The notes: generated by a model not told the origin, from the letters alone. DNA of 64,000 nucleotides from a bacterium (GCA_021786315.1 JAJYNN010000002.1:31370-95369); one strand, 5' to 3'. Numbered from the stretch's first letter, positions 21,562 through 46,718 are shown. Made by a program: numbers and translations.

Positions 21562-22887
21562 ATGGACAAGAATTGGTCGAAAGTTTTAGATAAGGTGCGT
21601 GATCAGGTTTCATACGTCAACTTTAAAGGGTGGCTCAATCCTTTATCTGCCGAGTTAAATGACAACGAACTGACTATCTTCGCACCTTCTGCCTTTGTTA
21701 AGGAAACGGTTTCCAGCCGTTATTTATCCCTACTGGAACCAGCCATTAAGGAAATCTATGGTGAAAATACCACCTTTTCTATTAAGGTTGACCCCAACAA
21801 AAATACTCCCAAGGAAGTTGTAGAGAGCGAGCCGGAAGAAATTTTTACCCCTGACATCCCATCACCGATGACTTTTGGATTAAATCCCAAATACACCCTG
21901 AGTAACTTTGTAGTGGGATTATCCAACAACCTGGCTTACGCGGCCGCCCAAGCTGTCGCTCAAAATCCCGGCACCAGCTACAACCCTCTCTTTATCTACG
22001 GCGGCACCGGAGTAGGGAAGACTCATTTAATGCAGGCTGTGGGAAATGTTTTGCTGCAAAAAAGGCCGAATATAAAAATCATTTATTGTTCCTCGGAAAG
22101 GTTTATGAATGATCTGGTCCAAAGTATCCAAACCAAAAGGACCGGGGAATTCCGGGCCAAATACCGGGCTTGCGATCTTTTACTAATTGACGATGTTCAA
22201 TTTATCTCCGGCCGGGATTCTACCCAGGAAGAGTTTTTCCACACCTTTAATGAACTCCAGGCTAAAAACTCCCAAATTATCCTCACCTCCGACCGGCCGC
22301 CCCAGGAAATCCAAAAACTGGAACCCCGTCTCCAGTCCCGTTTTCAGGGTGGATTAATGGTGGATATCCAAAACCCTGACTTTGATACCCGTGTCGCCAT
22401 TTTAAAGGCCAAGTGTGCTGAGCGGGGGGAGATAGTTTCGGAAGATATCCTAACCTTAATTGCTGAAAGCATGCCCACTAATGCCCGTGAACTTGAAGGT
22501 AAGTTTATCCAGATCGTTCAGTCAGCCAAACTGTTAGGCCAGACATTAACTGATGAAGGAGTCAGGCGTTTCCTAGGTGCCCCCATCCAAACTACCCAAA
22601 AGATTGACCATAAAAAGGTTATCGGGGAGATTAACCATTATTTCAATATTAAGACGGCCGATTTAACCGGTCCCCGGCGTAAAAAGGAATTGGTTATGCC
22701 CCGGCAAATCACTATGTACTTGCTTTATGAAGAGTGCAAACTTCCCTACGAGCGAATAGGGGAGCTTTTAGGAGGCCGGGACCATACCACTATTATGCAC
22801 GGTGTGGAAAAGATTGGCGAAGCCATCAACCGTGACCGGGAGATCCAAAGGATGCTTATTGAAATTAAACAGGCTTTGCAAGGATAA
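21562..22887 (+). CDS. dnaA: chromosomal replication initiator DnaA
   Basis: AAA+ Walker A (GGTGVGKTHLMQAVGN), Walker B, C-terminal DNA-binding domain. Confidence 0.97.
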   Translation: MDKNWSKVLDKVRDQVSYVNFKGWLNPLSAELNDNELTIFAPSAFVKETVSSRYLSLLEPAIKEIYGENTTFSIKVDPNKNTPKEVVESEPEEIFTPDIPSPMTFGLNPKYTLSNFVVGLSNNLAYAAAQAVAQNPGTSYNPLFIYGGTGVGKTHLMQAVGNVLLQKRPNIKIIYCSSERFMNDLVQSIQTKRTGEFRAKYRACDLLLIDDVQFISGRDSTQEEFFHTFNELQAKNSQIILTSDRPPQEIQKLEPRLQSRFQGGLMVDIQNPDFDTRVAILKAKCAERGEIVSEDILTLIAESMPTNARELEGKFIQIVQSAKLLGQTLTDEGVRRFLGAPIQTTQKIDHKKVIGEINHYFNIKTADLTGPRRKKELVMPRQITMYLLYEECKLPYERIGELLGGRDHTTIMHGVEKIGEAINRDREIQRMLIEIKQALQG

Positions 22888-23544: not shown

Positions 23545-23589
23545 TTTAGGGCTACCTTTTGACTTTGTCAAAACGATCCTGTAATTTTT
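23545..23589 (-). promoter_or_regulatory. conserved intergenic motif family A (copy 4; reverse orientation) immediately upstream of dnaN
   Basis: Reverse-complement reads AAAAATTACAGGATCG-TTTTGACAAAGTCAAAA-GGTAGCCCTAAATT. Confidence 0.5.
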
Positions 23590-24703
23590 GAAGACAAAAA
23601 TTATGAAATTTTCAATCCTACAACAAGATTTAATGCCGGCTTTATCCGCAGTTGCCCGTTCATCCGGAGTCCGGGCCCAATTACCTGTTCTAAGTAATAT
23701 ACTTTTACAAACAGAAGCAGGTAGGCTTAAACTTTCAGCCACTAACTTAGAGGTTGGGGTGGTAAAGTATGTCAAGGCGGAGATAGTTGAGGAAGGCGAG
23801 GTAACGGTTCCCGCCAAGACTTTGGTTGAGGTAGTGGCAAATTTATCCGGAGAAAAAATCGAGTTTTCCACAGCCTCCGATATTCTGGAAGTGGTTACTC
23901 CCAGTTTTTCCTCTAAGATTTCCGGTATTTCAGCCAGCGAATTTCCCACCATTCCTTTAACAGGTAAAGAGGCGGTGGTGATTGAGGCGCCGTTAATTTC
24001 TAAGTCGTTACCTCAGGTAGTATTTTCAGCAGCTGTAGATGACGGCCGGCCGATATTGACCGGAATTTTAACCGAGATTAAGGATGGGAATTTACGGTTA
24101 GTGGCCACGGATGGATATAGGCTGGCTCATAAAATAGTTCCAACCCCTAAAGATATCTCTTTTAAAGCCTTGGTTCCCCGAAGGACTTTTGAAGAAATAG
24201 TCAGGCTTATCTCTGAGGAGGAGACAGACCAGGTTAAGATTTCAGTTTCCGACGATCAAAACCAGGTGGTTTTTAGTTTTGGGAATACCGAATTTTCTTC
24301 CAGGTTGATTGAGGGGCAGTTTCCGGCATGGGAAAAGATTATTCCTTCTGAGCCCAAAGCCCGGGTTGTGGTTGATAAAAATGAAATCCTGAAGGCGGTT
24401 AAATTAGCCTCGGTATTTGCCAGGAATGAAGCTAATATAGTGAAACTGCAAAACTTACCCGGAAAGTTACTACTGACTTCCGAGGCTAAAGAGGTGGGTC
24501 AGCAAAAGAAAGAAGTTGAGGCTCAGGTTGAAGGGGAAGAGGTGCAAATTGCTTTCAATACTAAATTTTTACTGGATGTTTTATCAGCTATAAGTTCTTC
24601 CCAGGTAATTATTGAGCTCTCCGGTAATCTTTCGGCAGCATTGTTTAAACCAATGGGGGATGAGGGGTTGGAATATATTGTGATGCCGGTAAACTTAAGC
24701 TAG
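23588..24703 (+). CDS. dnaN: DNA polymerase III beta sliding clamp
   Basis: Three-domain beta-clamp pattern; follows dnaA and oriC. Confidence 0.92.
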   Translation: MKTKIMKFSILQQDLMPALSAVARSSGVRAQLPVLSNILLQTEAGRLKLSATNLEVGVVKYVKAEIVEEGEVTVPAKTLVEVVANLSGEKIEFSTASDILEVVTPSFSSKISGISASEFPTIPLTGKEAVVIEAPLISKSLPQVVFSAAVDDGRPILTGILTEIKDGNLRLVATDGYRLAHKIVPTPKDISFKALVPRRTFEEIVRLISEEETDQVKISVSDDQNQVVFSFGNTEFSSRLIEGQFPAWEKIIPSEPKARVVVDKNEILKAVKLASVFARNEANIVKLQNLPGKLLLTSEAKEVGQQKKEVEAQVEGEEVQIAFNTKFLLDVLSAISSSQVIIELSGNLSAALFKPMGDEGLEYIVMPVNLS

Positions 24704-25168
24704 CTATACACCCTTGTACTCGATGGTTTTAAAGTGGTAGTTATAATCCCGGTCTAATTTTTTCCCGCCGTCAAACTTGGTATCGTTTTTATAGATAAAT
24801 AAAGTATAAGTGGTGCCTAAAGCGAAGGTGGAAGTGGGAATGATTTTAGCTGTCTTTTTATCGTCGGAAAGTTTAATGGTGTATCCTACTGCAGGCTCTA
24901 TTTTGTGTTTAAGTTCGTCTTTATTTTCCAAAGGCAGGTTAAAAGTAATTTCTATATCTTGAGTGGGTAAAATAATGGCGTTGTCTAAAGCTTCCGGGTT
25001 GGTGGAGATAATTTTGCCGTATTCAGGTGCTACAGAAATATTTTGCTGTTGCAACTTTGGGGAAGAATGTGATGGCGAGCTATAAAGCCCTTGTTTAAAA
25101 ATCAGGATTAATACAGCTCCGATTATGGTGGCTGCGGCAATAATTTTTTGTTTAAAACTTAAGGACAT
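24704..25168 (-). CDS. secreted/anchored protein with Ig-like (Big_5/SbsA-like) domain
   Basis: N-terminal TM/signal segment, then a beta-rich domain with an IxTxPxxxxxNxxxxxxIxIxF pattern; last gene of the T4SS-like operon. Confidence 0.35.
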   Translation of the reverse strand: MSLSFKQKIIAAATIIGAVLILIFKQGLYSSPSHSSPKLQQQNISVAPEYGKIISTNPEALDNAIILPTQDIEITFNLPLENKDELKHKIEPAVGYTIKLSDDKKTAKIIPTSTFALGTTYTLFIYKNDTKFDGGKKLDRDYNYHFKTIEYKGV

Positions 25169-25174
25169 ATTATT

Positions 25175-25909
25175 TTATTCCGGTTTTATCTCCCAGGTTA
25201 TATTGTACACCGATAAATCTATGCCCAGGTTGGTAAGTCTGGTTTTAATTTCATTTTGCATATTTGCAATCTGGTCATTAATTGAAGTGGAGGAGGAAGT
25301 CTGGGGATAAAGTTTTCCGATAAAATGGGGGTCTCCTTGGTTTGTCGTAAAGTAGACAAAATATTCCTTCTCCTCTAAAGGAAGGCTAAGGAACCAGGGA
25401 TATTTTTGTATAAACTGGTCTCTTTGCTCGGCAACTTGCTGGTCAGCTTGAAGTTGAAGTTTTGTTTGATCTTGGGAAGTAGCTTTCTCGACAGGCACGG
25501 TGGTAAATGTCCAGGAATGGGTTAGGCCAAGATAGATTAACTTGGCAATATATTTTTGGTTTGGATTAAGGGGTTTGGGTAAATCTAAGGAAAGGATTTT
25601 ATTGTCGGAAGACCAATTGGTGCTACCGGTAATGTCAGGAAGAATTGTGATGGATGTAGTATTTTTTTCTGTCTCAGTAAGTGAGCGGGAGAAATTAACC
25701 TGAATTTTAGGGAAAAGGCTGATATTGGTACTGTTAGGGGAGGGGTAAGCTGATGTAATTGTTATGCTTGGCTGGGTGGTGGGGGTTGGGGATTGAAACT
25801 GGATAAGATCCCTAGGCTTTTGGGTCTTTTTAAATAATGGGGAGATAAAAGAAACCACTATAAGGGCTAGAAGCAGAAAAACTCCTAAAATTAAAAAATA
25901 CTTTTTCAT
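25175..25909 (-). CDS. secreted protein with Ig-like (Big_5-like) N-terminal domain
   Basis: Signal peptide/TM then an ITSAYPSPNSTNISLFPKIQVNF-type Big_5 pattern; resembles the downstream neighbour. Confidence 0.35.
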   Translation of the reverse strand: MKKYFLILGVFLLLALIVVSFISPLFKKTQKPRDLIQFQSPTPTTQPSITITSAYPSPNSTNISLFPKIQVNFSRSLTETEKNTTSITILPDITGSTNWSSDNKILSLDLPKPLNPNQKYIAKLIYLGLTHSWTFTTVPVEKATSQDQTKLQLQADQQVAEQRDQFIQKYPWFLSLPLEEKEYFVYFTTNQGDPHFIGKLYPQTSSSTSINDQIANMQNEIKTRLTNLGIDLSVYNITWEIKPE

Positions 25910-28288
25910 TTAAATATGTCCTCCAAAACCGGTAATTTTCTCATCGGGATTAAAGTTATTTTGAATTTCCCAATTATCCACACTATATGTCCATCCGGTA
26001 TATTTACCAGCATTTGAATCATAGGTGGTTATATGACCAGTCCCGGTTGTTTTATCGACTGTGTTTTCTTTAACAATTGAGACATGCTCATTATAAGTTG
26101 TCACACCTGGTTTTTCTTCTTGGAACATGGCAAAACCCGGTTGGACATCTTTTAGAACCTGATGGTTTTGTTGATAATCGAGATAAATATAACCCAAAGA
26201 GGAAGATTTTTTCCAGAAGTTTTCCATATTAACTACCAAACCATGAACAGCTTTATCCAACCCTGAAAAACCAGCTAGATTGAAGGAGTCAATTACCAGG
26301 TATGTACAGGCATAGTTATTACTAGCTGCGGCAGTGTAACCATTATTTGTGATAGGAGAAAGGAGAATACTGCTGGATTTTTTATCGAAATTGTTAATAA
26401 TTGTCTGAGTCCATTGCAGAATATTATCCAATAAACCTCCGGAAGAAGCAGCGCTCTTACAGCCTTTGTAGCTGTTCCAGAGGTCGGAGCAGTAGCTGTA
26501 AGTTTGTCCGTTTTGGGAATACTCACATCCTCCATAGTAGGAGCTGGCTATTTGCCTTATTGTTGCCTCGTTATAAACAGGGTTTGTTCCGGCATCAAGT
26601 TTAGCCTTGATGGCGGTAGCTATAATTTCGTCCTTTATACTGTAGATCCGCATCTTATCTTCTGTTGTCTGCTTGTAAAGGGGATCATTAGGATCCTGGT
26701 ATCTTTTTTGGGTTATTTGGTTGCCTAATGGATTTGACAAATTCCCGTGATATTTATCAATAAAATCCCTACTTTTTACCCAAACGGGAATAAAACCTGT
26801 TTTTTCAGGGAACCTCTCTTTTAATTCATTGCTGTTGACTATATCAAGCCAAGTAGTGGGGGTGAATTGTGTGGCTCCAAAAGCTACCGGTTGTTGTGTG
26901 TCCTCGTCAAAAGAGTTGTGATCATCAAAATCATTCTCAAGATAGCTGGGATCATTGGTATAAAAACATTCCGGGCATTCGACCCGTAATATCCCCGCGA
27001 CGATAGATGGTGGGACTCCCACTCTTGAAGAAACATTATTAATAAGCTTTGGCCATTCGGGAGTTCTAAATTTTAATCCGGGAGTAGAATCCCCACCCCG
27101 GTAGAAAGTGCAGGAGGTTACATCTCCACTTGGGCTGACATTGTCGGGGTTACTAGAGGATCCACCCAAAAAGCCGAAGAATAGTATTATTCCAGCGAGA
27201 CCAAAAATAATACCGACAGCTGCCGGGCCTACCAGTCCAATTCGCAGCCAACTCAAAGGATTCAAATTAGAGCTAGAATGTTTATTGTTGTTATTCTTAG
27301 GAGTGTCTATATCAGGAAAGGTTTCTAACTCTCTAGGATTTTCTGATCCGCCTGCAATGGGCATAAGTACTCTCCCATTAGGCAAGATAAAATTAGAAAG
27401 ATCGACATCTGGTATCCCTAAATTAGATTGAGGTCTGGTGGGTCTTTGAAGAATAATATTTCCTGTAACTCTGCCTGATATTCCTCCAATGATAAAACCA
27501 AGCGCTGCTCCTGGTGGACCTCCCCAAAACAAACCTGCCGCTGCTCCTGCAGCTCCGCCTATAATTTCTCGGGGAAAGCGGGTAATAAGCCCGTGAAGTT
27601 TTCTTTGGCTATAGCTAACTGCATTTTTAATCGAAGATGGAGTTTCGAATTGCTTTAACCTTTGGATTATTGGATTCAACCTCTCTGAAAGTGTGGGTGA
27701 AGGGGCAGATGTAACACTTTCAGAAGATAGCGAACTTTCCTTAGGTGTTTCTTGCTTTTGGGATTGAGGTTGTTCTTCTTTGGCCTCGGTTGTTCTTTTG
27801 GAAGAAGACAATGTTAGTTCTTCTTTTTTGTCCTCTTCATTTATTCTTCTTTCAATCTCTTTTCGCCTGGCTCCATCGTCGTTAATATTATCCACCTCTT
27901 CCGGAATTAGATGGTTGGCTAGGAGAGGTTGTTGTTGCTCAGATCGGTTAACTGCTAAGGAGAATAGGTGTAATCTTTTCTCGTCATCAGAGTACTTAAC
28001 AAGGAAGGATTTAGAACTGTCAGGTGATTTTTTGCTGGAAAAGTATTCATTTTTATATTTTTGATCCATTCCTCCTGGAAGTTCAGATGAGACCATTGAA
28101 GCTGCATCCTGAAACATTTTTAAATAAAAGATTAAAGGTCGGCCTTGATACCTTATGGGCAGTCTGGCATCAATATAGCTGTCGATAAGTTTCCGTCCGC
28201 TTTCGGTTTGGTAGATTTTAAGAAACTGCTGGGCGTCTTTAATCTGATTAGGCCGGTATTTAGTAAAAAGATTGGTTAAATTAGCCAT
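25910..28288 (-). CDS. large membrane-anchored cell-wall hydrolase (PrgK/VirB1-like) with C-terminal CHAP-like domain
   Basis: Charged/coiled N-terminal region, Gly-rich TM region, central region with VPPSIVAGILRVE block, C-terminal Cys...His papain-like pattern (YACTYLV ... NEHVSIV). Confidence 0.55.
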   Translation of the reverse strand: MANLTNLFTKYRPNQIKDAQQFLKIYQTESGRKLIDSYIDARLPIRYQGRPLIFYLKMFQDAASMVSSELPGGMDQKYKNEYFSSKKSPDSSKSFLVKYSDDEKRLHLFSLAVNRSEQQQPLLANHLIPEEVDNINDDGARRKEIERRINEEDKKEELTLSSSKRTTEAKEEQPQSQKQETPKESSLSSESVTSAPSPTLSERLNPIIQRLKQFETPSSIKNAVSYSQRKLHGLITRFPREIIGGAAGAAAGLFWGGPPGAALGFIIGGISGRVTGNIILQRPTRPQSNLGIPDVDLSNFILPNGRVLMPIAGGSENPRELETFPDIDTPKNNNNKHSSSNLNPLSWLRIGLVGPAAVGIIFGLAGIILFFGFLGGSSSNPDNVSPSGDVTSCTFYRGGDSTPGLKFRTPEWPKLINNVSSRVGVPPSIVAGILRVECPECFYTNDPSYLENDFDDHNSFDEDTQQPVAFGATQFTPTTWLDIVNSNELKERFPEKTGFIPVWVKSRDFIDKYHGNLSNPLGNQITQKRYQDPNDPLYKQTTEDKMRIYSIKDEIIATAIKAKLDAGTNPVYNEATIRQIASSYYGGCEYSQNGQTYSYCSDLWNSYKGCKSAASSGGLLDNILQWTQTIINNFDKKSSSILLSPITNNGYTAAASNNYACTYLVIDSFNLAGFSGLDKAVHGLVVNMENFWKKSSSLGYIYLDYQQNHQVLKDVQPGFAMFQEEKPGVTTYNEHVSIVKENTVDKTTGTGHITTYDSNAGKYTGWTYSVDNWEIQNNFNPDEKITGFGGHI

Positions 28289-30041
28289 TATCTACTTTTT
28301 TCCTTGCGAGGAGTTCCTGGGGGTTGGTGGTGATTAAATTATGCTCTTCTTCTGAGGCAACTACCCTCATGGCAACGTGGGTATTGCCGGCAAAGAACAA
28401 TCCCTGGCCGATACTGCCTGCCTGCAGGATCCTTTTTTCTCCTTGGGAAAGGTTAAAGACCTGGCCTAAGGTTTCCACGGAAATAGGCGCTTGTTTTAGT
28501 AGAACCTGCATGGCGGAGTTGGAAATAATTTCCTTGCCCCGGTCGGTGCCTAAGAAATCCTCCACATCTTGGCTGATAGTGGTTACTCCTAAGAAATATT
28601 TACGTGAACGTTTAACCATCTCTACTAAGAAGGCGGCGGAATCGGGATACTTCATCATGTACCAGGCTTCATCTACTACCAGGATCCTTTTCTTAAGCTC
28701 CCGCCTGATCTTTGTCCAAACATAATCCAGGATCAGGTACATAGCCAAAGGCCGCAGCTGGTCGGGAAGTTCGCGGACGGAAAAGACGGTAAAAGGATTG
28801 TCTAATTTGATATTGGAGTGGGTAGAGAAAATCCCGGATAGTGATCCTTTAATAAACCTCTCTAGTCTTACAGCTAAGGAGTTGGCTATTTGGTCTTCCA
28901 TGCCGATTAAGACTTTATACAGATCCTCCATAAGGGGCGGTTCGGCTCCGGCGGGCATGTTGGTGGAGGTAATTCCTTTGAGGCGGTAAGTCGTATTTAG
29001 TGCCCGGTCTAAGATTGCTGCTTCCTGGGAATTAAGATCCCCTAAAACCAGCTTCAAAAATCCAATTAAAGAAAGGATTTTTCTTCCCAACTCATCCTCG
29101 CCTCTGTCGGCCACTTCCGGCAAGTCAAAGGGGTTAATCTTTACCGGTGAGTTTGAGGAGAAGCTAATATAATCCCCGCCCACGGCTTTAGCTAAATCGG
29201 CATACTCCCTTTCCGGATCGATCACGATAACCTCAGTGCCCAGCATTAACGACCTTAAGGCCTCAAGTTTGACGAAGTAGGATTTACCGCTGCCGGCCGT
29301 GGCCAAAACTACCGAGTTGGCGTTTTCCCCTCCAAAGCGGTCGTAAATAATTAAGGAATCATTATGTTCGTTGATCCCGTAAATTACCCCTTCAGCCGAC
29401 ATCAGTTCAGAAGATGTAAAAGGGAAAGTGGTGGCCAAAGAGGTGGTATCCATGTTGTGGGTCAGGTACAAAAGATCCTGGCCTAACGGCTCGGTGCAGA
29501 TAAACCCTTCCTGCATCTGTAAAATCGAAGGTCTGACAGTCACTGAAATACTTCCTAAGGTTGATTCAACGAGTTGAGATTTGTTGTCGAGCTCGGTTTT
29601 GGACCTGGCGGGAGCAGTAATATATAGGCTGTATTGGAAAAATCTTTCGGCGCCTTTGGCCAGTTGTTCCTGTAAATCCCGGGCATCTTCCAAGGCCACG
29701 GTAACTGAGGGGTCGATCACCCGGCCCCGTTCAACGTCGGTCTGAATGGTTGCCTCCATCTCGGCGATCTTTCTTTTTAGATCATCCAGAACTCCGGCAG
29801 ATTTAGTAGGGTATATAAACATGGAAATATATAAGGAATGCTCAAAAGAAACGAGTGGTTCCAGCCAATTGGGTTGAACAAATCTGGGGTATCCCGAAGC
29901 ATAAAAGGTGCGGTAAACACTGTTACAAAGCCGAAGATACGAAAAATCCACCTCCATCTCTAAAGGTGCAACGACATCTTCAATATTTAGCCCTGTGGAA
30001 ACAGGAGCTGGTTGGTTAGTTTTTTTACGGCCCAAAATCAT
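28281..30041 (-). CDS. VirB4/TraE/TrsE-family T4SS ATPase, C-terminal ATPase portion
   Basis: Walker A LATAGSGKS, Walker B ILVVDEAW, conserved YYRTF...GYP middle region and TTISQDVED block. Confidence 0.85.
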   Translation of the reverse strand: MILGRKKTNQPAPVSTGLNIEDVVAPLEMEVDFSYLRLCNSVYRTFYASGYPRFVQPNWLEPLVSFEHSLYISMFIYPTKSAGVLDDLKRKIAEMEATIQTDVERGRVIDPSVTVALEDARDLQEQLAKGAERFFQYSLYITAPARSKTELDNKSQLVESTLGSISVTVRPSILQMQEGFICTEPLGQDLLYLTHNMDTTSLATTFPFTSSELMSAEGVIYGINEHNDSLIIYDRFGGENANSVVLATAGSGKSYFVKLEALRSLMLGTEVIVIDPEREYADLAKAVGGDYISFSSNSPVKINPFDLPEVADRGEDELGRKILSLIGFLKLVLGDLNSQEAAILDRALNTTYRLKGITSTNMPAGAEPPLMEDLYKVLIGMEDQIANSLAVRLERFIKGSLSGIFSTHSNIKLDNPFTVFSVRELPDQLRPLAMYLILDYVWTKIRRELKKRILVVDEAWYMMKYPDSAAFLVEMVKRSRKYFLGVTTISQDVEDFLGTDRGKEIISNSAMQVLLKQAPISVETLGQVFNLSQGEKRILQAGSIGQGLFFAGNTHVAMRVVASEEEHNLITTNPQELLARKKVDNG

Positions 30042-30870
30042 CGTTTAACTCTTCCACGACAAATGGGGGAGAAAGGGGGGTGGTGGATGAAGGAGCTGGG
30101 GCAGAGGGAATGGGAGTTTGGGGTATGGGGTGAGGCGCAAAAGCTGGTTGAGTGGGAGCGGGTTGAGGTAAAGGTGCAGTAGTTTGGGGAGCAGCTACTT
30201 CCACAGGTTGGTTTATTAGCTTCTTGTCTTCACCGGCCACCTGGTCTACTGATTTATCTGATTTTCTGGCTTCCGGCTTCTGTTTTCCATCCTCCAGGCT
30301 AAACTGGTTTTCCGGATAAGGTGGGTTATAGATGTTGTAAAAGAGGGTCACCAGGTCAGGGGTGGTCATTTGTCTGGACTTTAACCCTAACCTGGAAAGT
30401 TGCCTAATGACGTGGTCTCGCCTGGGGGCAAGCACCGTGGTTGCCCGTTTGCTTTTGTCGGCAATATTTTTAGGTAAAACTCCGAGCTCCACCGGATTTA
30501 CCGCCAGGCAAACATAAAATTGTTTATCCAGGACGTTTTTCTCCTTAATAATACCGGCCACAAATTCGCGGTAACGGGCGGTCATGTTTTTTAACAGGGG
30601 ATTAGTCTGGGTGGCCAAAGCCTTATCTAAAGTTGACAGGTATGATGAGACATCCAGCCTTCTGGACTGGACAACAATTTGGATAGGGAAGGAGAGGGAG
30701 TTTAAAAACCCGGCAAAGGATTCAATAATCGACATTTGCTCAGTTTCAAAAAGCAGCCCGAAGTTCACAGCGGAGGTAGAAATGACCATAGTTACCCCTC
30801 CGTTTTTTAAAAAGACTAAATTATCTTTAATATCGGCAATAGGTACAAAACTTTGGCTACGATTGACCAT
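30025..30870 (-). CDS. VirB4 N-terminal domain encoded as a separate ORF with a Pro-rich C-terminal linker
   Basis: PIADIKDNLVFLKNGGVTMVI...SEEQ pattern typical of the VirB4/CagE N-terminal region; 17-nt overlap with the ATPase ORF in another frame. Confidence 0.5.
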   Translation of the reverse strand: MVNRSQSFVPIADIKDNLVFLKNGGVTMVISTSAVNFGLLFETEQMSIIESFAGFLNSLSFPIQIVVQSRRLDVSSYLSTLDKALATQTNPLLKNMTARYREFVAGIIKEKNVLDKQFYVCLAVNPVELGVLPKNIADKSKRATTVLAPRRDHVIRQLSRLGLKSRQMTTPDLVTLFYNIYNPPYPENQFSLEDGKQKPEARKSDKSVDQVAGEDKKLINQPVEVAAPQTTAPLPQPAPTQPAFAPHPIPQTPIPSAPAPSSTTPLSPPFVVEELNDDFGP

Positions 30871-32062
30871 TTTCTGCTTTCTTTGGATGGATTGTAATTG
30901 GCTGAATAACCTCCCCTTCTAAAGAAATTTGTAAGGTATCAAATTCCATGTTCTCTTTTTCCATGGTTAAGTTGTAGGTTCCTGAGGGGAGTGGAGTGGC
31001 GCCACTGAATTGTCCCAGCTTATTTGTCTTTAACGCCCTTACCGGAAGGCCCTCGCTGTTATGGATAATAACAATTACTCCTTCCAGGAAGTTGCCTGCT
31101 TCATCAGAGATAACTCCGTTGATGACGTTGGGGAGCGAAGTTAGGGTGATCTGGGTCTTAACCTCTTTTTTGGGTTCTACTACCACCACATGAGCTTTTT
31201 GGGGTTGCACAACTGGGGTCGGTACAGCAACAGGGTTTTGGGGTGTGGGCTGAGCGGTTACCTGGTTGATTTGGGAAGTTTGTTGATATAGTTTTCCGGT
31301 TTGGGCAACCAGGTTTTGTAAGTTTTGGGAAGCTTGTTGGAATTTTGCAGCGTATTCCGGCCCCGCGATTTCTTTTTGGGCGGCCATGCTCCGGAGAACT
31401 TGGATTTGCCTTTCGGCTTCGGCGATTTTGGATTGTAATAAATGCGCCTCATTAGCCATAGCTACCAATTTGGATAGGTTTTCACTGGAGGGGAGCGCTG
31501 TTGGCGCAGGATTGGTTTGGGTTGTTGTTTGCAGCTGTGGTGTTGGCTCAGGAGCAGGACTTGGACCAGGTGTTGAGGAAAGTGGTGCCTGTGTTTGAGA
31601 TACCGGGGTTGAAGACGGTGCCAAGCGGGTCATCCTTGGCAGAGGTGCGGCAGATTTGGGCTGGGGAGCGGGAGATGTTACCCCAATATTAGTCAGGTAT
31701 CGTTGCAGACGGTTCTTAAAGAGGGGATCGTTGTCGCTAACCTTATTTTTTTGGCCTGTGATTACCCAAAAGCCTTGGGTAGGCGAGTAAATGGCCTTAA
31801 GAAATGCCAAAACCCAGTGATCTAGAGGCCGGTCAAAGATAGGCACAAAAGCAAAGGCTATGCCGGTTAGGGTTGAGACTGTAATAATAGGCAGAGCCAG
31901 AAAAATATTTACCGGGAAGAGCAGGGTAAAAGATACATAGGCAATGGCAAAGCCGGTAGCCAGATACCCAAACTGTTTTAAGGTCATATCTCCCACCAAA
32001 CGGAACTGGAAGGAAGTGACGTTTTGGGGGACAGGATGATCTAGCATAGCAAAAGGGATCAT
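30857..32062 (-). CDS. PrgI/VirB3-like membrane protein fused to Pro-rich linker, coiled coil and C-terminal CarboxypepD_reg-like beta-sandwich domain
   Basis: N-terminal FQFRLVGDMTLKQF plus two TM helices (PrgI-family pattern); C-terminal GVISDEAGNFLEGVIVII...GxYNL pattern of carboxypeptidase regulatory-like domains. Confidence 0.45.
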   Translation of the reverse strand: MIPFAMLDHPVPQNVTSFQFRLVGDMTLKQFGYLATGFAIAYVSFTLLFPVNIFLALPIITVSTLTGIAFAFVPIFDRPLDHWVLAFLKAIYSPTQGFWVITGQKNKVSDNDPLFKNRLQRYLTNIGVTSPAPQPKSAAPLPRMTRLAPSSTPVSQTQAPLSSTPGPSPAPEPTPQLQTTTQTNPAPTALPSSENLSKLVAMANEAHLLQSKIAEAERQIQVLRSMAAQKEIAGPEYAAKFQQASQNLQNLVAQTGKLYQQTSQINQVTAQPTPQNPVAVPTPVVQPQKAHVVVVEPKKEVKTQITLTSLPNVINGVISDEAGNFLEGVIVIIHNSEGLPVRALKTNKLGQFSGATPLPSGTYNLTMEKENMEFDTLQISLEGEVIQPITIHPKKAENGQS

Positions 32063-32400
32063 ATAGCGTGAAAAATGGGTCGTCTAGGGGCTCAAAATGG
32101 GTCATTTCCGACCTATCCTTACTTATTTAATTCACAAGATGAAAAAATAAACCCAAAAATTGGGTAATTGACACAAAAATTTAAAGTTGTTAACGTAATT
32201 TCCGTGGTGTACCGGGTCAGTATTTTTGGCCCAAGGTACATAGGGAATCTTGTGTAAATCAAGAACTGTGCCGCAACGGTAATCCAGAATGTCGGAATAT
32301 CGGAGCGTCGGAACGTCAGAAAATTTAAATTCTGAAACGCTGATACTCTGAAACGCTAACACAATGGTTAAGTCCGGAGACCGACCACAATCCAAAATAT

Positions 32401-32703
32401 TTGGATCAATCCCGTTGCAGGAATATGACAGAGATATTTTTAAATCCTCTAAAATTAGATCAAGCTAATTCATCTAGCAGTTGCACTCCTGATCCTTCTC
32501 TCTTCGAAGAAGTTGTCGACCATGCTTCTAGAATTTCCCGTTTCGATTTAGAAATCCAACAAAAACCTGATCAGCCAGCCAACCAAATGCTGTTACAGGC
32601 CCTAACACTAACCCCTTATTTTTCCTGTCCTAAATGCGGCCAGGTTATCTTTTTAGGGCCGGAGAAATCGGGCTGTTGTAGCTGCTGTAAAACAGATGCT
32701 TAA
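32401..32703 (+). CDS. small Cys-rich protein (zinc-ribbon-like C-terminus)
   Basis: CPKCG...CCSCCK at the C-terminus; start uncertain. Confidence 0.3.
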   Translation: MDQSRCRNMTEIFLNPLKLDQANSSSSCTPDPSLFEEVVDHASRISRFDLEIQQKPDQPANQMLLQALTLTPYFSCPKCGQVIFLGPEKSGCCSCCKTDA

Positions 32704-32791: not shown

Positions 32792-35230
32792 ATGTCAAAA
32801 GAATTTATGAGTGAAATTGGGTCAGAAATAGCACCAGGATCAGGATCTGGTTTTGTGGAAAATTCCTCTACTGGAGATCAAGGCAGTTCTCCGTCATCTA
32901 GTGAAATACTCAGTTCTCCTGTTACTTCTCCGGAATCAAAAACAACTTCAACAGATGATTTGATTATAAAAGAAGATGGCCATTTTTGGGTAGCTTATGA
33001 TTCTTCAGGTCACGAAGTTAGAAGATTTCCAAAAGTTGAAGGTGGGGCGCCTCGGGGTCGAGGCTTGGATCAAGAATTTCTCGAAGCAGAAGCCGCGAAA
33101 TTAGCAGCGGAAACAGATCCTTATAAAATTATTGCCACTGTAGATGGGATGGCTATTGGGGAAGCTGGGAAACTAGCGATCTTATTGCAAGTAGATAAGC
33201 TGCGGGGAGAACAGCCGTATTTAGTTTGGGAGAGAGTAGAGAACCTAATTCGGGGTATAGAAGCCCAGGGGGCTGAATTTCCTGATGGAACAGCCTCATC
33301 CCTTGCCAATATTGTCAACGAGGGATTGTCATCCAACGATGAGCTGCGTTCGAAACTGTTTAATTTAATTTTAGCCCGTTACCGTTATCAAAACATAAGC
33401 TACGGTATAGAAGTTGTGGGACTGGAGACTGCGGCGAAACATTTTGGTAATTTAAATGGAAAACAAAATGAAGCTATTTTGGGATTAGGTGGCGTCACTC
33501 AGGCGCTTGAGCTGTCTAACCGCCAGGATGTGGTCAGGCAAAAAGATGGTCTCTCAGATCTGGCTAAAAACGTTAACAACCGGATGACTATTGCCCGGGG
33601 AATTCTGGATGGTAAGGATTCAGTGGGGGTGGCTACAAAGAGAGATGAATATCACAAGCTTTTCCCTGACGTTGATATTGACGCTTTAATAAGCAGCGGG
33701 CATATGGAGGAATTATTCGCTTTAGATCTAAGCCTGCTTGCTGTAGTAGAAAAAAAAGGAACAGAAGCTGGCAAGGAAGATTTTATAAAAGCGGTCGATA
33801 AGGTGGCTAAAGTGGGCGATCGAACTTTTACTGATGCAGAGAAAGAAGCCTTAAAGAAATGGTGGGAATCGAGAAATGAGTTGGAACAACGGGCTTTAAG
33901 CAGATTGCAGCATGAAACTGTACGGGCATTTGATTTAGCCAAAAAAGCGATGAATGTGGTAGGAATTACCGGCAGGTATGACAGCCCGGTTGTCCGGACC
34001 GGTAAAGGCGCCAATGATTTTACTTTCTTGGATATTTATAGAGAGCTTGATCCGATTGTTTCCTATGAAGATGCCGCAGGGGAGAAGCTCGAAGTACACC
34101 TTAATTCTGTGGCTGATATAGCAGACGTTGTAAGAACTATCCGCGATGGGTCTGGAAGAGCAGGGATTGTGGCTATTGCCGGTGAAGATGCTGTCGCGAA
34201 AAAAGAAACTGAAACTAAAAAGAGTATTCTGGATGCGAGTGAAGACGATTTAATTAAATTAATCAGAGAAGGAATGTCCAAGGTAGCTACCAGGGCCCAG
34301 GTCGAAGCGATGGCAGCAATCATACCTGATGTCAGAATAAGAAATGGGCTGATTGATTTATGGGCAGTAGATAAGATTAAAAAAGGTGACGAGGCAGTTG
34401 TTAAAGACATTAAAGCAAAGCATGAGAGGGGTGAGGATGTTGGTTTAGATGACTTGAAAGATCTGGATTTAGGTTACTCTTATAAGATTGCCATGGCCTG
34501 GGATAAGGCCTTGCGGGAATACTTTGTAAAACATTGGGATGAAATTTCGATCCCGTTATCTTTACAGGGGAGTGCCCCAACTTCCCTTAAAAGGGCTTAC
34601 TATTTTCCAGCCTTTATTCCCAGAACGTCTAATGCTGATAGAGGCCGGGCAGGTTATCTTTGGAGATATTCCCATCTTAACGCGCTCGATTTAATGAGCT
34701 ATACAGGCAGGTCTTCTATTGTCGACCAGCTCAAAAATTGGGGTGATGACATCGGGATTATTCTTTCTTGGAGCGGAAGGCTAAAAGGAGCGGATGATAT
34801 GCGTAAAGTAATCGCTGCCGGAGGAGAGGTGGCACTCTTGGATAGTCCTGATGTGCTTAATAGCCCTATTACTTCTTTACCGAAGCTAAAAGGGAAAGCT
34901 GCTTATGTTCCACCAGAAGAGCTTCGTGACTATATGGGGCATTGGGCAGAGGGTGTATCAATATTTTTGAGAAAGTTTAACCGACAAACATTTGGTGGGA
35001 AATTTAAGAATGTTGATGTGAGTTCTGAATATGAAACTTATAAAGCCTTAACTGCTCAGGGAGTTATAGATCAGAACGTAGAAAAAGAGCTTGTAAGAAG
35101 AGAGTTTGGTTTCTGGGGGTATTTTAAAGCAGAAGTTATTTTATTTGTTCAAAGAGCGGATTGGGGAGGGGCGTTTGGAGATGCCTTAAAGAAATTTTTA
35201 AGCGCACTTGGTTTAGGTTCAGGAAAATAA
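32792..35230 (+). CDS. large hypothetical protein (812 aa) inside the T4SS-like locus
   Basis: No TM helix or recognisable catalytic motif; S/T-rich disordered N-terminus. Confidence 0.4.
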   Translation: MSKEFMSEIGSEIAPGSGSGFVENSSTGDQGSSPSSSEILSSPVTSPESKTTSTDDLIIKEDGHFWVAYDSSGHEVRRFPKVEGGAPRGRGLDQEFLEAEAAKLAAETDPYKIIATVDGMAIGEAGKLAILLQVDKLRGEQPYLVWERVENLIRGIEAQGAEFPDGTASSLANIVNEGLSSNDELRSKLFNLILARYRYQNISYGIEVVGLETAAKHFGNLNGKQNEAILGLGGVTQALELSNRQDVVRQKDGLSDLAKNVNNRMTIARGILDGKDSVGVATKRDEYHKLFPDVDIDALISSGHMEELFALDLSLLAVVEKKGTEAGKEDFIKAVDKVAKVGDRTFTDAEKEALKKWWESRNELEQRALSRLQHETVRAFDLAKKAMNVVGITGRYDSPVVRTGKGANDFTFLDIYRELDPIVSYEDAAGEKLEVHLNSVADIADVVRTIRDGSGRAGIVAIAGEDAVAKKETETKKSILDASEDDLIKLIREGMSKVATRAQVEAMAAIIPDVRIRNGLIDLWAVDKIKKGDEAVVKDIKAKHERGEDVGLDDLKDLDLGYSYKIAMAWDKALREYFVKHWDEISIPLSLQGSAPTSLKRAYYFPAFIPRTSNADRGRAGYLWRYSHLNALDLMSYTGRSSIVDQLKNWGDDIGIILSWSGRLKGADDMRKVIAAGGEVALLDSPDVLNSPITSLPKLKGKAAYVPPEELRDYMGHWAEGVSIFLRKFNRQTFGGKFKNVDVSSEYETYKALTAQGVIDQNVEKELVRREFGFWGYFKAEVILFVQRADWGGAFGDALKKFLSALGLGSGK

Positions 35231-35235
35231 TTTAA

Positions 35236-37047
35236 TTAAGGTAAGATTCGCCCTATTCTACTCCGAGTATCTGTGGGAGTAGGGCCAAGTCCCATTTTCT
35301 CTTTTTCTTTCGCTTCTGTATAAGCTTTATTTTGTTGTTTAAATCTGGAGGTCAGTTTTCCGTAGAAAGCTTGGCTTACACCCATACCACCCATGAAGCC
35401 TCCAATTATTGATTTGCCAAATAATGGATTATCTTTGATTCCAAAGGCACCCTTAACTGCGTCAGGTATAGAAGGAACCATAAGCAGAACACCATAAGCT
35501 AGAAGTAGACGTAAAAAGTCAGGGCTTAAATTTCCCAAAAGAGGAATGGTACCTGTAAAATTACCCGGATTGCCGGTTACGTTAAAGGGTGCACTCTGCC
35601 ATTTTAAAAGATAAGCAGCAAAAAGTAGTGCGGCAAAAACCGCTGGAAAGACCATCAAATTTCCTAACATATTTTTAATCCAGCTTCCCAAAACGTTTTG
35701 TCTTCCGGGAATACTACCTAAGAGGAACTGGAGGGGAGCTGTGACTGTATTTATTAAAATTGATATGTAAGATGTGATTAATCCGAATACGGTTTTAAAC
35801 ATGGCGATGAGTAATGCAATTATTAAGATAATATATAGCAAAAGCCCAACAATTCCTCCGGCAATATTAAAGTGGGTTAATGCAAAAACTATTCCGCTGC
35901 CGCCGATACATCCAACTGTTTTTTTAGGGTCAAGTGAAAACCCGATACCGAATGGTTTGATATCAATACTAGTAAGCCCTCCAAGCGGGCCCTCATCAAT
36001 AATTTTTTGTCCTAAATAACATCCCACTGCAGCAGAGGTTAGATCGATCATAGTGCCCAAAGGTCCTTGTTTGATGTAATCTAGTGTTTGGGCTGTAGTC
36101 CCGGCAAGTTCCCAGGGGGCATTACTGGTGGGGGAGCTATATTGGCCTACTATGAACGGGCTGAACAGACTAAAAATGTTTTGGCCGCTGAGCAAATTCT
36201 CGGTAGTATTTTTTTGCCCATCAATGATTCCTTCTTGTTCAAAAACTTTGCCTACCAAGTGTACTGAAACAAAAGTGACATCCACTACTAAGGCAGCTAA
36301 AAAGTAGCTGAAAGTAATTAGTATTAAACCGACGACTAGTCCTGGAAGAGCGCTTTGGGCGGAAATAACAGTTTGGGGGTTAATTTTTTGACGGAACATA
36401 ATCATAAAACCTATTACCAGGAAAATAAAAATCATCGCCAGATAGGAGATATTTCTGGCTAGTTTCCATAAAGGTAGGATGGGTGACAAAACATCATTCC
36501 CTGATCCTCTAACCTGGGCGTAAGCAGGTGTAATAATTCCCATACCCTTCCCTGCATCTGCAATATAATCTGCAGCAATTAACGGAGGGGTGGCATAAAG
36601 ATAAGAAATAAAGTAAGTCATTGAGCCGATTGCTCCTCCTGAGGAGATAAATGTTTCCTTGGGAACCATAGTTCCGGCTTTTGGTCCTTGAGTTTCCCTT
36701 TGATATTCGATACAGGGCTGACCAATGATAGAGGATCCTTCCGCTAAACAGCTAAAGGTATGAATTAGATTTATTACTACCATGTTGGCATATTGAGGTG
36801 ATTGATTGGAAAAATTAAGGGAAGTTGGTTGGACAAGTGCAGCGTCTGGAGTGGCAGGTTGAGTTTGGGCTTGAACTGAACTCGCGAAAAACCAGGAACT
36901 GACTATGAGCAGGAAGCTAACCAGGAAACGGGCAGGCATTACATCCAGAATATAATAGTTGGAGTCGAGTTTGCAACCATTAAGGACAGATTGGAGCAAA
37001 GCCGATACAAAATGTAAGGATATTAGGTACTCCGGTGAAAGCGGCAA
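35236..37047 (-). CDS. VirB6/TrbL-like polytopic membrane protein
   Basis: 603 aa; signal-like N-terminus, at least 8 hydrophobic helices, Gly-rich C-terminal tail; last gene of the pilin operon. Confidence 0.5.
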   Translation of the reverse strand: MPLSPEYLISLHFVSALLQSVLNGCKLDSNYYILDVMPARFLVSFLLIVSSWFFASSVQAQTQPATPDAALVQPTSLNFSNQSPQYANMVVINLIHTFSCLAEGSSIIGQPCIEYQRETQGPKAGTMVPKETFISSGGAIGSMTYFISYLYATPPLIAADYIADAGKGMGIITPAYAQVRGSGNDVLSPILPLWKLARNISYLAMIFIFLVIGFMIMFRQKINPQTVISAQSALPGLVVGLILITFSYFLAALVVDVTFVSVHLVGKVFEQEGIIDGQKNTTENLLSGQNIFSLFSPFIVGQYSSPTSNAPWELAGTTAQTLDYIKQGPLGTMIDLTSAAVGCYLGQKIIDEGPLGGLTSIDIKPFGIGFSLDPKKTVGCIGGSGIVFALTHFNIAGGIVGLLLYIILIIALLIAMFKTVFGLITSYISILINTVTAPLQFLLGSIPGRQNVLGSWIKNMLGNLMVFPAVFAALLFAAYLLKWQSAPFNVTGNPGNFTGTIPLLGNLSPDFLRLLLAYGVLLMVPSIPDAVKGAFGIKDNPLFGKSIIGGFMGGMGVSQAFYGKLTSRFKQQNKAYTEAKEKEKMGLGPTPTDTRSRIGRILP

Positions 37048-37326: not shown

Positions 37327-37767
37327 TTATCTGACTGGTGTGGGAGTAACTATGATTGGAGCGGTGGATGTCAGAGAGGGGATAGTTAAGTTGCCCAGGA
37401 TGTTAATGCCTAAGATATTGCCGACTACAAAGACTATCACAAAAGCAAATGCCAAGATTGCGAGGCCGATTAAAGCGTTGGTAATTCTCTTCCGGGCATT
37501 GCCTACAGCCTCCTTGTCACCACCGGAGGTGATCCATTGGAAGGCTCCGATAATCAGCATCACCAATACTGCTAAAGCGGCAACAACGAAAATAATTCTG
37601 ATAAGGTTGGTAAAAAGTACCCCGACAATACCATTGGTGGGGGTGATGGCGGTTCCCGGGGGAGGAGCAACGTTGACTGTAATGTCCGCAAAAGCTTTGC
37701 TGGTGATTGCGAGTGAGCCTAAAGTAGTGAGTAAAGCAGCAACTCTTTTCATGACTGATCTCATCAT
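37327..37767 (-). CDS. pilin-like small membrane protein, paralog P4
   Basis: Signal-like N-terminus; QWITSGGDKEAVGNARKRITNALIGLAIL motif; ~48 nt near-identical to P3. Confidence 0.6.
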   Translation of the reverse strand: MMRSVMKRVAALLTTLGSLAITSKAFADITVNVAPPPGTAITPTNGIVGVLFTNLIRIIFVVAALAVLVMLIIGAFQWITSGGDKEAVGNARKRITNALIGLAILAFAFVIVFVVGNILGINILGNLTIPSLTSTAPIIVTPTPVR

Positions 37768-37801
37768 ATGCCGATTATTATTTACTTGTCAAGCACGGCC
37801 T

Positions 37802-38203
37802 TTATTTAGTTAGCTTGACTTGTCCTTCGAAGAATTGGAATCCGGTAATATCGCCAATGACATTAATAATGACCCAGGCTAAAGCCAAAAGAACTATTCC
37901 AATAATTGCCCAAGTGAGCCTTCTCCGGGCGTTGCCTACAGCCTCCTTGTCACCGCCGGAGGTGATCCATTGAAGACCGCTGATTAAAACCATAAAGATA
38001 AAGATTATCCCTGCCGCCACATAAATTAATTGGATTGTATTGTTTAATACCGTGCTAATGCCTTTACCTCCCGGTCCTAAAGCGGCAATTGGGGTAGGGG
38101 CTTCAACTTTTCCGATGACATCGTCCACACTTTGGGCAGCAGCCAGACTAACTTGTTTTAAAAATATGGCGATACCCAAAAGAGGGACAAGAATTTTTTT
38201 CAT
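37802..38203 (-). CDS. pilin-like small membrane protein, paralog P3
   Basis: Signal peptide plus QWITSGGDKEAVGNARRRLTWAIIGIVLL motif. Confidence 0.6.
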   Translation of the reverse strand: MKKILVPLLGIAIFLKQVSLAAAQSVDDVIGKVEAPTPIAALGPGGKGISTVLNNTIQLIYVAAGIIFIFMVLISGLQWITSGGDKEAVGNARRRLTWAIIGIVLLALAWVIINVIGDITGFQFFEGQVKLTK

Positions 38204-38529
38204 GGGTTTGTTTTAATGACCTCGAATCCTTTCAGGCCTAAAAACTCCGGCACAAATTGGATAATTAAAAACATCAGCATTAATAGTATAAAACCTATAA
38301 TAGCATGGATAATCATGTTCCGGGCACCAGAAACGGCATTTTTATCGCCCCCGGAGAGGACAAACCTAAAGGCTCCAATTAAAAAGTAGATAATGACGGC
38401 CAGTGCAGCAATGGCAAATCCCGGGCCGACTAATGCACCCATGACACTGGCTAGTGAATCATAGTTGCCAAAGCCATAAGCATCTTTTAAATCAACACTG
38501 GCAGCATAAGCAGTCGGAATGAAATTCAT
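38200..38529 (-). CDS. pilin-like small membrane protein, paralog P2 (the track ORF 38200..38640 is probably N-terminally over-extended)
   Basis: VLSGGDKNAVSGARNMIIHAIIGFILL motif; start ATG overlaps the stop of P1 (ATGA). Confidence 0.5.
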   Translation of the reverse strand: MNFIPTAYAASVDLKDAYGFGNYDSLASVMGALVGPGFAIAALAVIIYFLIGAFRFVLSGGDKNAVSGARNMIIHAIIGFILLMLMFLIIQFVPEFLGLKGFEVIKTNP

Positions 38530-38864
38530 GGCGTTGTTACGGTTGTTATCGGTATATCTTTTGGTTTGGCCAGATCCTCTTTTAAGAATTGGCTGATAGC
38601 AAAAGCTAGAATCAGTATAACAAAACCAACGATTGACCAAATGATCCTTTTACGGGCATAGGACAAACCTTCCTTACTACCTCCGGCAAAGATGTATTGG
38701 AAAACTCCCCAGGCAAACCAAAAAAGCATTAAAAATCCTCCGACCATTAACGCCAGGTTCAAAAAAGCGGAGATTACTCCTCCTAAGGTAGGTTCTTTAA
38801 TGGCAAAACCCGCCCCGGTTTTTATTGGATCAGCATCAAAAATTGCTTTAAGTCCTGGAATCAT
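38526..38864 (-). CDS. pilin-like small membrane protein, paralog P1
   Basis: IFAGGSKEGLSYARKRIIWSIVGFVIL motif; start overlaps the stop of the upstream adhesin-like gene. Confidence 0.5.
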   Translation of the reverse strand: MIPGLKAIFDADPIKTGAGFAIKEPTLGGVISAFLNLALMVGGFLMLFWFAWGVFQYIFAGGSKEGLSYARKRIIWSIVGFVILILAFAISQFLKEDLAKPKDIPITTVTTP

Positions 38865-45405: not shown

Positions 45406-45804
45406 GGGGACGTACAGATTCGACGTTCTGGCACTTTAAAAACTGCAAGCCGAAAAGGAAACCTTATTCGTAAAATACGGTTTCAAAAATAAATGCTAAG
45501 GTAAACACCTTCGCATCCCAGGTGCAAAAGTTTGCACTCGGTGTATTTTCTACACCGCAGCGCTACGCTCTAGCATAAGGGTACTTTAGGGTAATGTCTG
45601 TCTGGCGCAATCCTTAAGGTAAGTACAAAGCCAGGTTGCAAAAATTATGGTGTTGGTTGATCCGTAATTTTTAAAGACAACTCAATCAAGTTTTAGTTTT
45701 CCTGCTAGTTTGGTTACAACTAGAACTTAAAAATTAACTAGCTAAGCTTGTAGAAGTTTTTACTCTGTTAGTACACACAGGGCTCAATGCCCTCGTCTCC
45801 ACCA
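45406..45804 (+). ncRNA. ssrA: tmRNA (ssrA)
   Basis: 5' GGGGACGTACAGATTCGACG pairs with 3' ...CGTCTCCACCA (acceptor stem with G3-U wobble, Ala identity); internal tag ORF ends ...FSTPQRYALA-TAA; directly downstream of smpB. Confidence 0.8.
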
Positions 45805-46626: not shown

Positions 46627-46716
46627 GGAGAGGTCGCATAGTGGTCTAGTGCGGCGCAGTGCTAATGCGCTGACCCCGTAAGGGGTCCGTGGGTTCAAAT
46701 CCCACCCTCTCCGCCA
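46627..46716 (+). tRNA. tRNA-Ser(GCT)
   Basis: Type II cloverleaf with long variable arm; anticodon loop GTGCTAA; encoded CCA. Confidence 0.85.
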
Positions 46717-46718
46717 AA

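Follow-up and report, generated by a model that had tools for sequence, protein, structure and literature searches.

We analysed a bacterial DNA stretch of 64,000 nt (GCA_021786315.1 JAJYNN010000002.1:31370-95369; hereafter the window, within which all coordinates are counted), in which an initial annotation had described a VirB4-family ATPase encoded as two overlapping open reading frames (ORFs). All coordinates and features of that description held on re-examination. With a probability of roughly 0.93, the two ORFs are real genes of one operon that jointly supply the role of a single-polypeptide VirB4, and a genuine two-polypeptide VirB4 is thus the option we favour among those that the initial annotation had left open. 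ORF1 (30025-30870, minus strand; 281 aa, ATG start) encodes the VirB4 N-module as a TrsD-type protein, and ORF2 (28281-30041, minus strand; 586 aa, ATG start) a VirB4 ATPase without its first N-terminal module. The arrangement is the standard, already published pair of TrsD and VirB4 of Patescibacteria and of pGO1/pSK41-type plasmids, and is ordinary for the phylum. Our reading draws on the complementary and abutting coverage of a VirB4 profile by the two products, on a fold match of ORF1 to VirB4 only, on the presence of the split at 80 of 81 distinct junctions in related Microgenomates genomes, and on the overlapping four-gene operon in which the pair lies.

The two ORFs and their VirB4 homology

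ORF1 and ORF2 overlap by 17 nt (30025-30041, minus strand) in different frames, as the initial annotation had stated, the frame of ORF2 being +1 with respect to that of ORF1. The 3' end of ORF1 reads CCA TTT GTC GTG GAA GAG TTA AAC GAT GAT TTT GGG CCG TAA; the overlap falls in its last codons (GAT GAT TTT GGG CCG TAA), where ORF2 starts as ATG ATT TTG GGC CGT AA..., its ATG lying inside the two Asp (GAT) codons of ORF1. At the junction, the window reads GATGATTTTGGGCCGTAA. A TAA two codons 5' of the ORF2 ATG (TAA-ACG-ATG) closes the ORF2 frame; the two frames are jointly open over only ~18 nt, and any shift fusing them would therefore be confined to this short stretch. The pair belongs to a run of four consecutive minus-strand ORFs, encoding a PrgI/VirB3-like protein, the TrsD-like protein, VirB4 and a 792-aa protein, which overlap by 14, 17 and 8 nt.

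ORF2 matched the NCBIfam family NF045971 (conju_CD1110, a VirB4-like conjugal transfer ATPase) with 374.1 bits (E 1.4e-111; curated cut-off 325) over profile positions 182-734 of 752. It also scored above the Pfam cut-offs of P-loop_TraG (84 bits against 25.8), AAA_10 (44.1 against 27.5) and DUF87 (35.7 against 23.2), and BLASTP against the VirB4-like ATPase of pSK41 gave 5e-39. The Walker A, Walker B and YYRTF...GYP motifs that the initial annotation had assigned to the second ORF were all located in ORF2, on the minus strand, as ATAGSGKS (residues 247-254, nt 29280-29303), ILVVDE (residues 453-458, nt 28668-28685) and VYRTFYASGYP (residues 42-52). ORF2 is the rest of VirB4, comprising the remaining N-terminal region and the RecA-like ATPase. 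The best 120 ORF2 homologs (68-100% identity) were all 531-618 aa long, and none carried the N-module.

A separate observation concerns the ATPase genes of five relatives (loci L026, L027, L053, L054 and L057). These have VirB4 ATPase ORFs of 1220-1310 aa with intein-like inserts not present in the window: the match to the window ORF2 breaks at Walker A, where ~600 aa are inserted. The insert in L053 (ORF ~5660-9360) has the boundaries GK/SVASWEP...FVHN/SGGGKSYF and LAGLIDADG-like motifs. By their sequence features, these P-loop inserts look like inteins with a homing endonuclease.

ORF1, whose N-terminus starts MVNRSQSFVPIADIKDNLVFLKNGGVTMVI, has a folded TrsD-type domain at residues 1-185 (nt 30316-30870, minus strand), as delimited by profile, fold and hhalign matches. 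Partial NCBIfam matches were obtained to conju_CD1110 (positions 14-184 of 752, E 4e-4) and to VirB4_plasma of mycoplasma integrative and conjugative elements (ICEs; positions 102-291 of 894, E 7.6e-8). Together, ORF1 and ORF2 tile conju_CD1110 without a gap between positions 14 and 734 (14-184, then 182-734). In an AlphaFold2 model of ORF1 built with 26 homologs, residues 1-185 were folded with pLDDT mostly 72-96, and a Foldseek comparison of this model with PDB returned R388 TrwK/VirB4 chains as all of its top 14 matches (probability 0.85-1.0), unrelated folds being listed only at E > 0.1. A sequence search of all PDB chains with the ORF1 family profile returned nothing at E <= 1, so that the likeness to VirB4 within PDB was found by fold comparison alone. 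The VirB4/CagE N-terminal region that the initial annotation had recognized on ORF1 is thus borne out by profile positions 14-184 of a full-length VirB4 and by the TrwK fold match. No transmembrane (TM) segment was found in ORF1, which fits the functional TrsD class: a small soluble homolog of the VirB4 N-terminus whose gene stands right before a virB4 gene that is short at the N-terminus. TrsD homologs of Patescibacteria have been identified by this same criterion (PMC12102498). We conclude that ORF1 is a TrsD-type protein, corresponding to the first module of the VirB4 N-terminal domain as a separate chain.

In public collections this protein (P0001) is called with 254 aa, starting at Met28, which is 27 codons short (30790-30870 region, minus strand). 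Homologs align from residue 1-5 of the 281-aa ORF1, so the shorter call cuts off a conserved N-terminus; the 281-aa version is also in the collection (P0121).

Conservation of the split and alternative explanations

We fetched 80 loci from species-representative genomes (Davies-, Gottesman-, Woese-, Collier-, Blackburnbacteria and others) and analysed every junction. The N-module and the ATPase were split at 80 of the 81 distinct junctions and fused at one. Among the split junctions, the ATPase gene was in the +1 frame in 39 and in the +2 frame in 29; in the other 12 it shared the frame of the N-module (frame 0) but followed a stop. The geometry varied likewise, with overlaps of 1-317 nt, and with abutting or separated genes in 25 cases (gaps of 0-135 nt); a 17-nt overlap identical to that of the window occurred at 6 distinct junctions. 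Two relatives at 53-54% identity kept both the 17-nt overlap and the order PrgI - TrsD-like - ATPase - large ORF - Big_5 - dnaN. The best 120 ORF1 homologs among 5.8 billion proteins, which come from Daviesbacteria, Microgenomates and Patescibacteria, were without exception stand-alone proteins, 222-405 aa in length. The only fused VirB4 with N-domain and ATPase was found in a Woesebacteria metagenome-assembled genome (MAG), RBG_16_42_24 (locus L048, 4938-7682); it has 914 aa, with a Gly/Pro-rich linker of ~110 aa between the two domains, and is either a secondary re-fusion or an assembly indel.

Many of the related MAG records (L005, L012, L013, L017-L021 and others) are titled "uncultured Gammaproteobacteria" or "Pseudomonadales". 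They carry a Microgenomates-type locus at 41-70% protein identity, and these titles look like mislabels.

The initial annotation had named a sequencing or assembly frameshift and a programmed frameshift as possible origins of the two ORFs. According to the former, one continuous VirB4 would have been split by a single-base error, for instance an extra T in the TTTT at 30030-30033. There are short homopolymers within the 18-nt doubly open region, and removal of one T from GATGATTTTGGGCCG would indeed join the frames (...EELNDDLGRKKTNQ...). However, a split seen in 80 genomes of other species with differing geometry excludes an assembly error, the best 120 homologs of each half are all stand-alone, and the end of ORF1 (...PFVVEELxDDFGP-stop) is conserved as a C-terminus. 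In addition, a contig produced by a different assembler (Logan, SRR22746126; L086) agrees with the window at every position of a 5147-nt stretch that takes in the junction. We therefore regard an indel as hardly credible. A programmed +1 frameshift, in which some ribosomes would shift at the end of ORF1 and add a fused full-length VirB4 to the two separate products, deserves slightly more consideration, and is nonetheless very improbable. ORF2 lies in the required frame, both frames are open over the same short stretch, the 17-nt overlap recurs, and a naturally fused relative exists. A CCC-stop pair is prone to shifting, and it is the CCC-TAA ends of some of the six relatives with the same overlap, where the tRNA could re-pair in +1 as CCU, that keep this explanation under consideration. 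The window, however, ends in CCG-TAA, so that a P-site tRNA slipping by +1 would meet CGU, a non-cognate codon. No slippery heptamer of the form X XXY YYZ was found at the overlap, a -1 slip would yield the wrong frame, and ORF2 has its own ATG just after the stop that closes its frame upstream. Given that relatives use all three frame relations with variable overlaps or gaps, no single frameshift mechanism can serve them, and none is conserved.

The explanation to which we give the least credence of all is that ORF1 is independent of the ATPase, as a decaying remnant or a protein recruited elsewhere, its adjacency being historical. In its favour, the TrsD homologs of Gracilibacteria are mostly not adjacent to virB4, according to PMC12102498. 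Against it stands the strong purifying selection on ORF1, with 41 invariant columns in the alignment of the 26 homologs (48-65% identity), as well as the conserved adjacency and overlap with virB4; a TrsD homolog is also listed as essential in Southlakia epibionticum ML1 in the same paper.

Several results weigh against our reading of two genes that together make up a VirB4. ORF1 matched the TrsD/TraD family NF041427 over positions 21-200 of 201 (E 1.1e-6) with 28.7 bits against a curated cut-off of 200, which falls short of membership by the NCBI threshold; by sequence comparison it is a distant relative of that family. Its homology to the VirB4 N-terminus is remote as well, and whole-family scores below the cut-off are to be expected for a fragment. 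The alignment by hhalign of the ORF1 family with pSK41 TrsD (E 4.4e-5, 178 columns, 19% identity) had a probability of only 69%. The Foldseek E-values of ORF1 were modest (3e-3 and weaker) and the TM-scores low (0.28-0.36), the latter being normalised over 281 residues including a 96-residue disordered tail. Database records assign PF26593 ("TraC-like") to the identical protein P0001 and to 119 of the 120 homologs listed, yet our local Pfam hmmscan of ORF1 gave no family at E <= 0.01, a discrepancy likely due to a difference in library version. An AlphaFold2 run on concatenated ORF1 and ORF2, using an unpaired MAFFT alignment (A3) with both homolog sets, gave a poor model (pTM 0.35, mean pLDDT 60, tail pLDDT 26-35) in which the tail and its terminal motif docked nowhere; such a model is too poor to weigh for or against docking of the tail. 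Finally, the fusion in L048 shows that the split is not obligatory, and the physical association of the two products is something we infer.

If the two-gene reading is right, the subunits would be made together. Overlapping stop and start codons couple translation, and the overlaps of this operon may do so here. A core Shine-Dalgarno (SD) sequence precedes only 10 of 48 ORFs in the window, start codons having been assigned mechanically, and re-initiation is thus a likelier route to ORF2 than a strong SD. VirB3 wraps around the VirB4 N-terminal domain in the R388 structure (PMC9259494), which makes the TrsD-like subunit the probable contact of the PrgI/VirB3 membrane protein encoded upstream, that is, the module gripped by it. 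The ATPase subunit would form a hexameric motor beneath the TrsD-like subunit, and the complex would power a chromosomal, dnaA-proximal type IV secretion system (T4SS) of Patescibacterial type, with a pilin array and no relaxase seen.

The ORF1 tail and its C-terminal peptide

The last 96 residues of ORF1 (186-281, nt 30028-30315) are predicted to be disordered by AlphaFold2. Most of this region is a linker (residues 186-268, nt 30067-30315, minus strand) that is first charged and then rich in Pro, Gln, Thr and Ala, with pLDDT 48-67 in the model of ORF1 alone. Its Pro-rich core (residues 222-269) has 17 Pro in 48 aa, so that the Pro-rich low-complexity tail of ~55 aa described in the initial annotation was about right. 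The linker is not conserved in length or sequence among homologs and cannot be aligned before a motif at the very end of the protein. This motif, the peptide PFVVEEL (residues 269-275, nt 30046-30066, minus strand), is followed by NDDFGP and the stop. Across the 26 homologs the two Glu residues (E273, E274) never vary, and conservation is at least 90% at P269, F270, V272 and L275.

The window and 24 distinct Daviesbacteria-like loci form a clade with long tails, variable in sequence, Pro/Gln/Thr-rich and 58-167 residues long, which always end in PF[VI]VEEL-x-D[DE], L022 alone having a variant (LFIVEKL). In most other Microgenomates relatives the tail is 2-49 residues long, and a few have long tails (77-189 residues) of other composition and without the motif. 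The initial annotation had called the Pro-rich linker unusual for VirB4: the tail is real, but a Pro-rich tail is confined to the Daviesbacteria-like clade and is not general to the split. We found PF[VI]VEEL once per locus, only at the C-terminus of the TrsD-like protein, and nowhere else in the window or in 84 loci. Pro-rich stretches occur in 2 of 53 window ORFs, namely ORF1 and the PrgI-like protein.

Third codon positions vary within the motif (GTC/GTT/GTG/GTA, GAA/GAG, TTA/CTA/CTG/CTT), and this free synonymous variation indicates selection on the peptide. In most members of the clade, the Asp codons 3' of the motif hold the virB4 ATG, and the Glu codons form a purine-rich stretch 7-10 nt upstream of it. 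Part of the conservation may therefore reflect dual coding. We rejected a Shine-Dalgarno sequence (GGAAGAG, 7 nt before the ORF2 ATG) as the sole cause, since core SD sequences are rare in the window and since the motif is kept in two loci (L018 and L021) in which the start of ORF2 has moved ~27 nt downstream. An alignment of PFVVEEL of some homologs with ORF2 residues 415-428 (NPFTVFSVRELPDQ) was likewise rejected, as chance or an alignment artefact.

Speculatively, the Daviesbacteria-like tail would most likely serve as a flexible tether whose terminal peptide docks onto a partner within the machine. The more specific proposal, that the N-module of this clade gained the disordered tether and its peptide as a non-covalent link back to the ATPase hexamer, or else to a different part of the T4SS, we put forward tentatively, at clearly less than even odds on the sequence pattern described above. 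C-terminal anchor peptides on flexible tails occur in other machines and are comparable in principle. The clade-specific tether with its terminal peptide is a minor detail and apparently undescribed; neither a Daviesbacteria-type tail with a conserved peptide nor the variable overlap geometry is described in the extracts of PMC12102498 and PMC10633639 on which we draw. The peptide on its tether provides a small lead on how a split VirB4 holds together.

The T4SS locus and known systems

The gene upstream of ORF1 (30857-32062, minus strand), whose end overlaps the ORF1 start by 14 nt, encodes a PrgI/VirB3-like membrane protein of 401 aa, with matches to Pfam PF12666 (PrgI, 28.5 bits; cut-off 27) and PF13620 (CarboxypepD_reg-like, E 6.9e-6) and TM-like segments at residues 31-49 and 50-77. 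A PrgI-like gene lies upstream of the TrsD-like gene in relatives L001-L004 too. The protein is unusually long: its TM segments are followed by Pro/Gln-rich linkers, a coiled-coil-like stretch and a C-terminal CarboxypepD_reg-like beta-sandwich, and this long architecture was flagged also in L003 and L004. On the other side, the end of ORF2 is overlapped by 8 nt by a gene for a bitopic protein of 792 aa (25910-28288, minus strand), with one TM-like segment (347-379) and no Pfam or NCBIfam family; a large ORF stands 3' of the ATPase gene in L001-L004 as well, and in pSK41 this slot of the operon is held by a membrane protein and a CHAP hydrolase. The operon ends with two small signal-anchored Big_5 (Ig-like) proteins (24704-25909, minus strand; Pfam E 7e-7 and 1.4e-8), which have N-terminal hydrophobic segments and the same synteny in L001-L004. 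Beyond them, on the plus strand, lie dnaN (23588-24703) and dnaA (21562-22887), recognized by their DnaN and DnaA domains, at 3.6-5.4 kb from the end of the virB4 gene.

Further components lie on the opposite flank. Four tandem genes for VirB2-like pilins (37327-40318, minus strand) matched T4SS_pilin (PF18895; E 2e-7, 7e-14, 6e-5 and 5e-8), and one of them encodes 485 aa with the pilin domain at its C-terminus; VirB2 arrays are reported in PMC12102498 to be typical of Microgenomatia. A polytopic membrane protein of 603 aa (35236-37047, minus strand), with six TM-like stretches of which two are long enough for two helices, gave no significant Pfam or NCBIfam family and is a candidate VirB6-like component; L001 has a 583-aa ORF in the corresponding position, 3' of its pilin-like genes. 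A VirD4/TraG-like protein of 780 aa with weak DUF87 and T4SS-DNA_transf matches is encoded 28 kb from virB4 (57765-60107, plus strand), which is consistent with reports that Patescibacterial coupling protein homologs usually lie away from virB4. No relaxase domain was found in the scanned ORFs, some small window ORFs being outside the scan. With virB4, TrsD, PrgI/VirB3 and pilins on a chromosome near dnaA/dnaN, this is a Patescibacteria-type T4SS locus.

Between the PrgI-like gene and a plus-strand ORF of 812 aa (32792-35230; no Pfam or NCBIfam family) we detected a cobalamin riboswitch (32191-32403, plus strand; Rfam RF00174, 48.7 bits, gathering threshold 31.5), divergent from the T4SS operon. 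Of 13 relatives tested, 7 have it in the corresponding position (L001 4733-4863, L003 4379-4544, L009 3479-3683, L011 3129-3275, L014 3543-3688, L015 3581-3711 and L028 3852-4011). A B12 switch that governs an uncharacterised protein next to a T4SS of the essential type, in a bacterium with a reduced genome, is puzzling, and it may, together with the intein-like P-loop inserts of the relatives, merit more attention than the split itself.

The other window genes are housekeeping ones, among them those for GroEL, a class I aminoacyl-tRNA synthetase and DnaG; a tmRNA (45406-45804) followed by a cluster of tRNA genes (46627-48243), both on the plus strand, are ordinary chromosomal features. A TATAAT-like box stands 6-10 nt before many starts (e.g., 10679 and 9511, and, on the minus strand, 5451, 7970 and 61360), which suggests, as far as the mechanically assigned starts allow, that leaderless mRNAs may be widespread.

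The result bears chiefly on annotation. Public collections give the 281-aa ORF no name; the pair is properly labelled as a TrsD-type VirB4 N-domain protein and a VirB4 ATPase of a Patescibacterial T4SS, and should not be "repaired" as a frameshifted pseudogene. The Patescibacterial T4SS is of real interest, since epibiotic growth depends on it in the only member of the phylum tested (Saccharibacteria). The window holds one more such system and adds nothing new on its substrate.

Among known systems, single-chain VirB4 proteins (R388 TrwK, the C. difficile CD1110 family, mycoplasma ICEs) have the same domains in the same order. In the window, by contrast, the chain is interrupted at about profile position 184 and a 96-residue disordered tail is added to the N-piece; a stop, a frame change and a separate ATG intervene, so that the N-module is not on the same polypeptide as the ATPase. 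The VirB3-VirB4 fusions of some Gram-negative systems are similar in that the VirB3, VirB4-N and VirB4-ATPase modules are shuffled among one, two or three polypeptides, although fusion is the opposite of fission, and according to PMC12102498 none was found in Patescibacteria.

The plasmids pGO1 and pSK41, of a subclass of the MPF-FATA type, encode a small cytoplasmic VirB4-N-like protein (TrsD/TraD) directly upstream of a short VirB4-like ATPase (TrsE/TraE), as in the window. In pSK41, trsD (25886-26569, 227 aa; annotated "TrsD/TraD family conjugative transfer protein") and the ATPase gene (26584-28602, DUF87) are preceded by one gene for a pilin-like protein and another, small one that holds the place of VirB3, and the profile alignment of TrsD with the ORF1 family spans almost the whole folded domain. 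The differences are that the two pSK41 genes are 14 nt apart instead of overlapping, that its TrsD has neither a long Pro-rich tail nor a PF[VI]VEEL terminus, that sequence similarity to ORF1 is very low, with ORF1 below the NCBIfam family cut-off, and that pSK41 is conjugative and encodes a relaxase and a coupling protein, whereas the window system is chromosomal and adjoins dnaN/dnaA. Guglielmini et al. 2014 (PMC4027160) do not use the string "TrsD" in their main text; for the likeness of TrsD to the VirB4 N-terminus we rely on PMC12102498 and on our own comparisons.

For Patescibacteria, Quinonero-Coronel et al. 2025 (PMC12102498) describe TrsD as remotely homologous to the VirB4 N-terminus and as the most abundant T4SS component recovered, with VirB4 associated with 1,664 of its 2,272 homologs. 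The T4SS clusters described there have PrgI/VirB3 and arrays of VirB2-like pilins, usually no relaxase, and often lie beside dnaA/dnaN. Wang et al. 2023 (PMC10633639) describe the essential T4SS of S. epibionticum as Gram-positive-like; it has pilins, and neither a coupling protein nor a relaxase could be recognised in it. From the Patescibacterial T4SS as presented in these papers, for Microgenomatia too, the window system differs in nothing of substance, sharing with it VirB4 with an adjacent TrsD, PrgI/VirB3, the pilin array, the lack of a relaxase among the ORFs scanned, a distant VirD4-like gene and the proximity of dnaA/dnaN.

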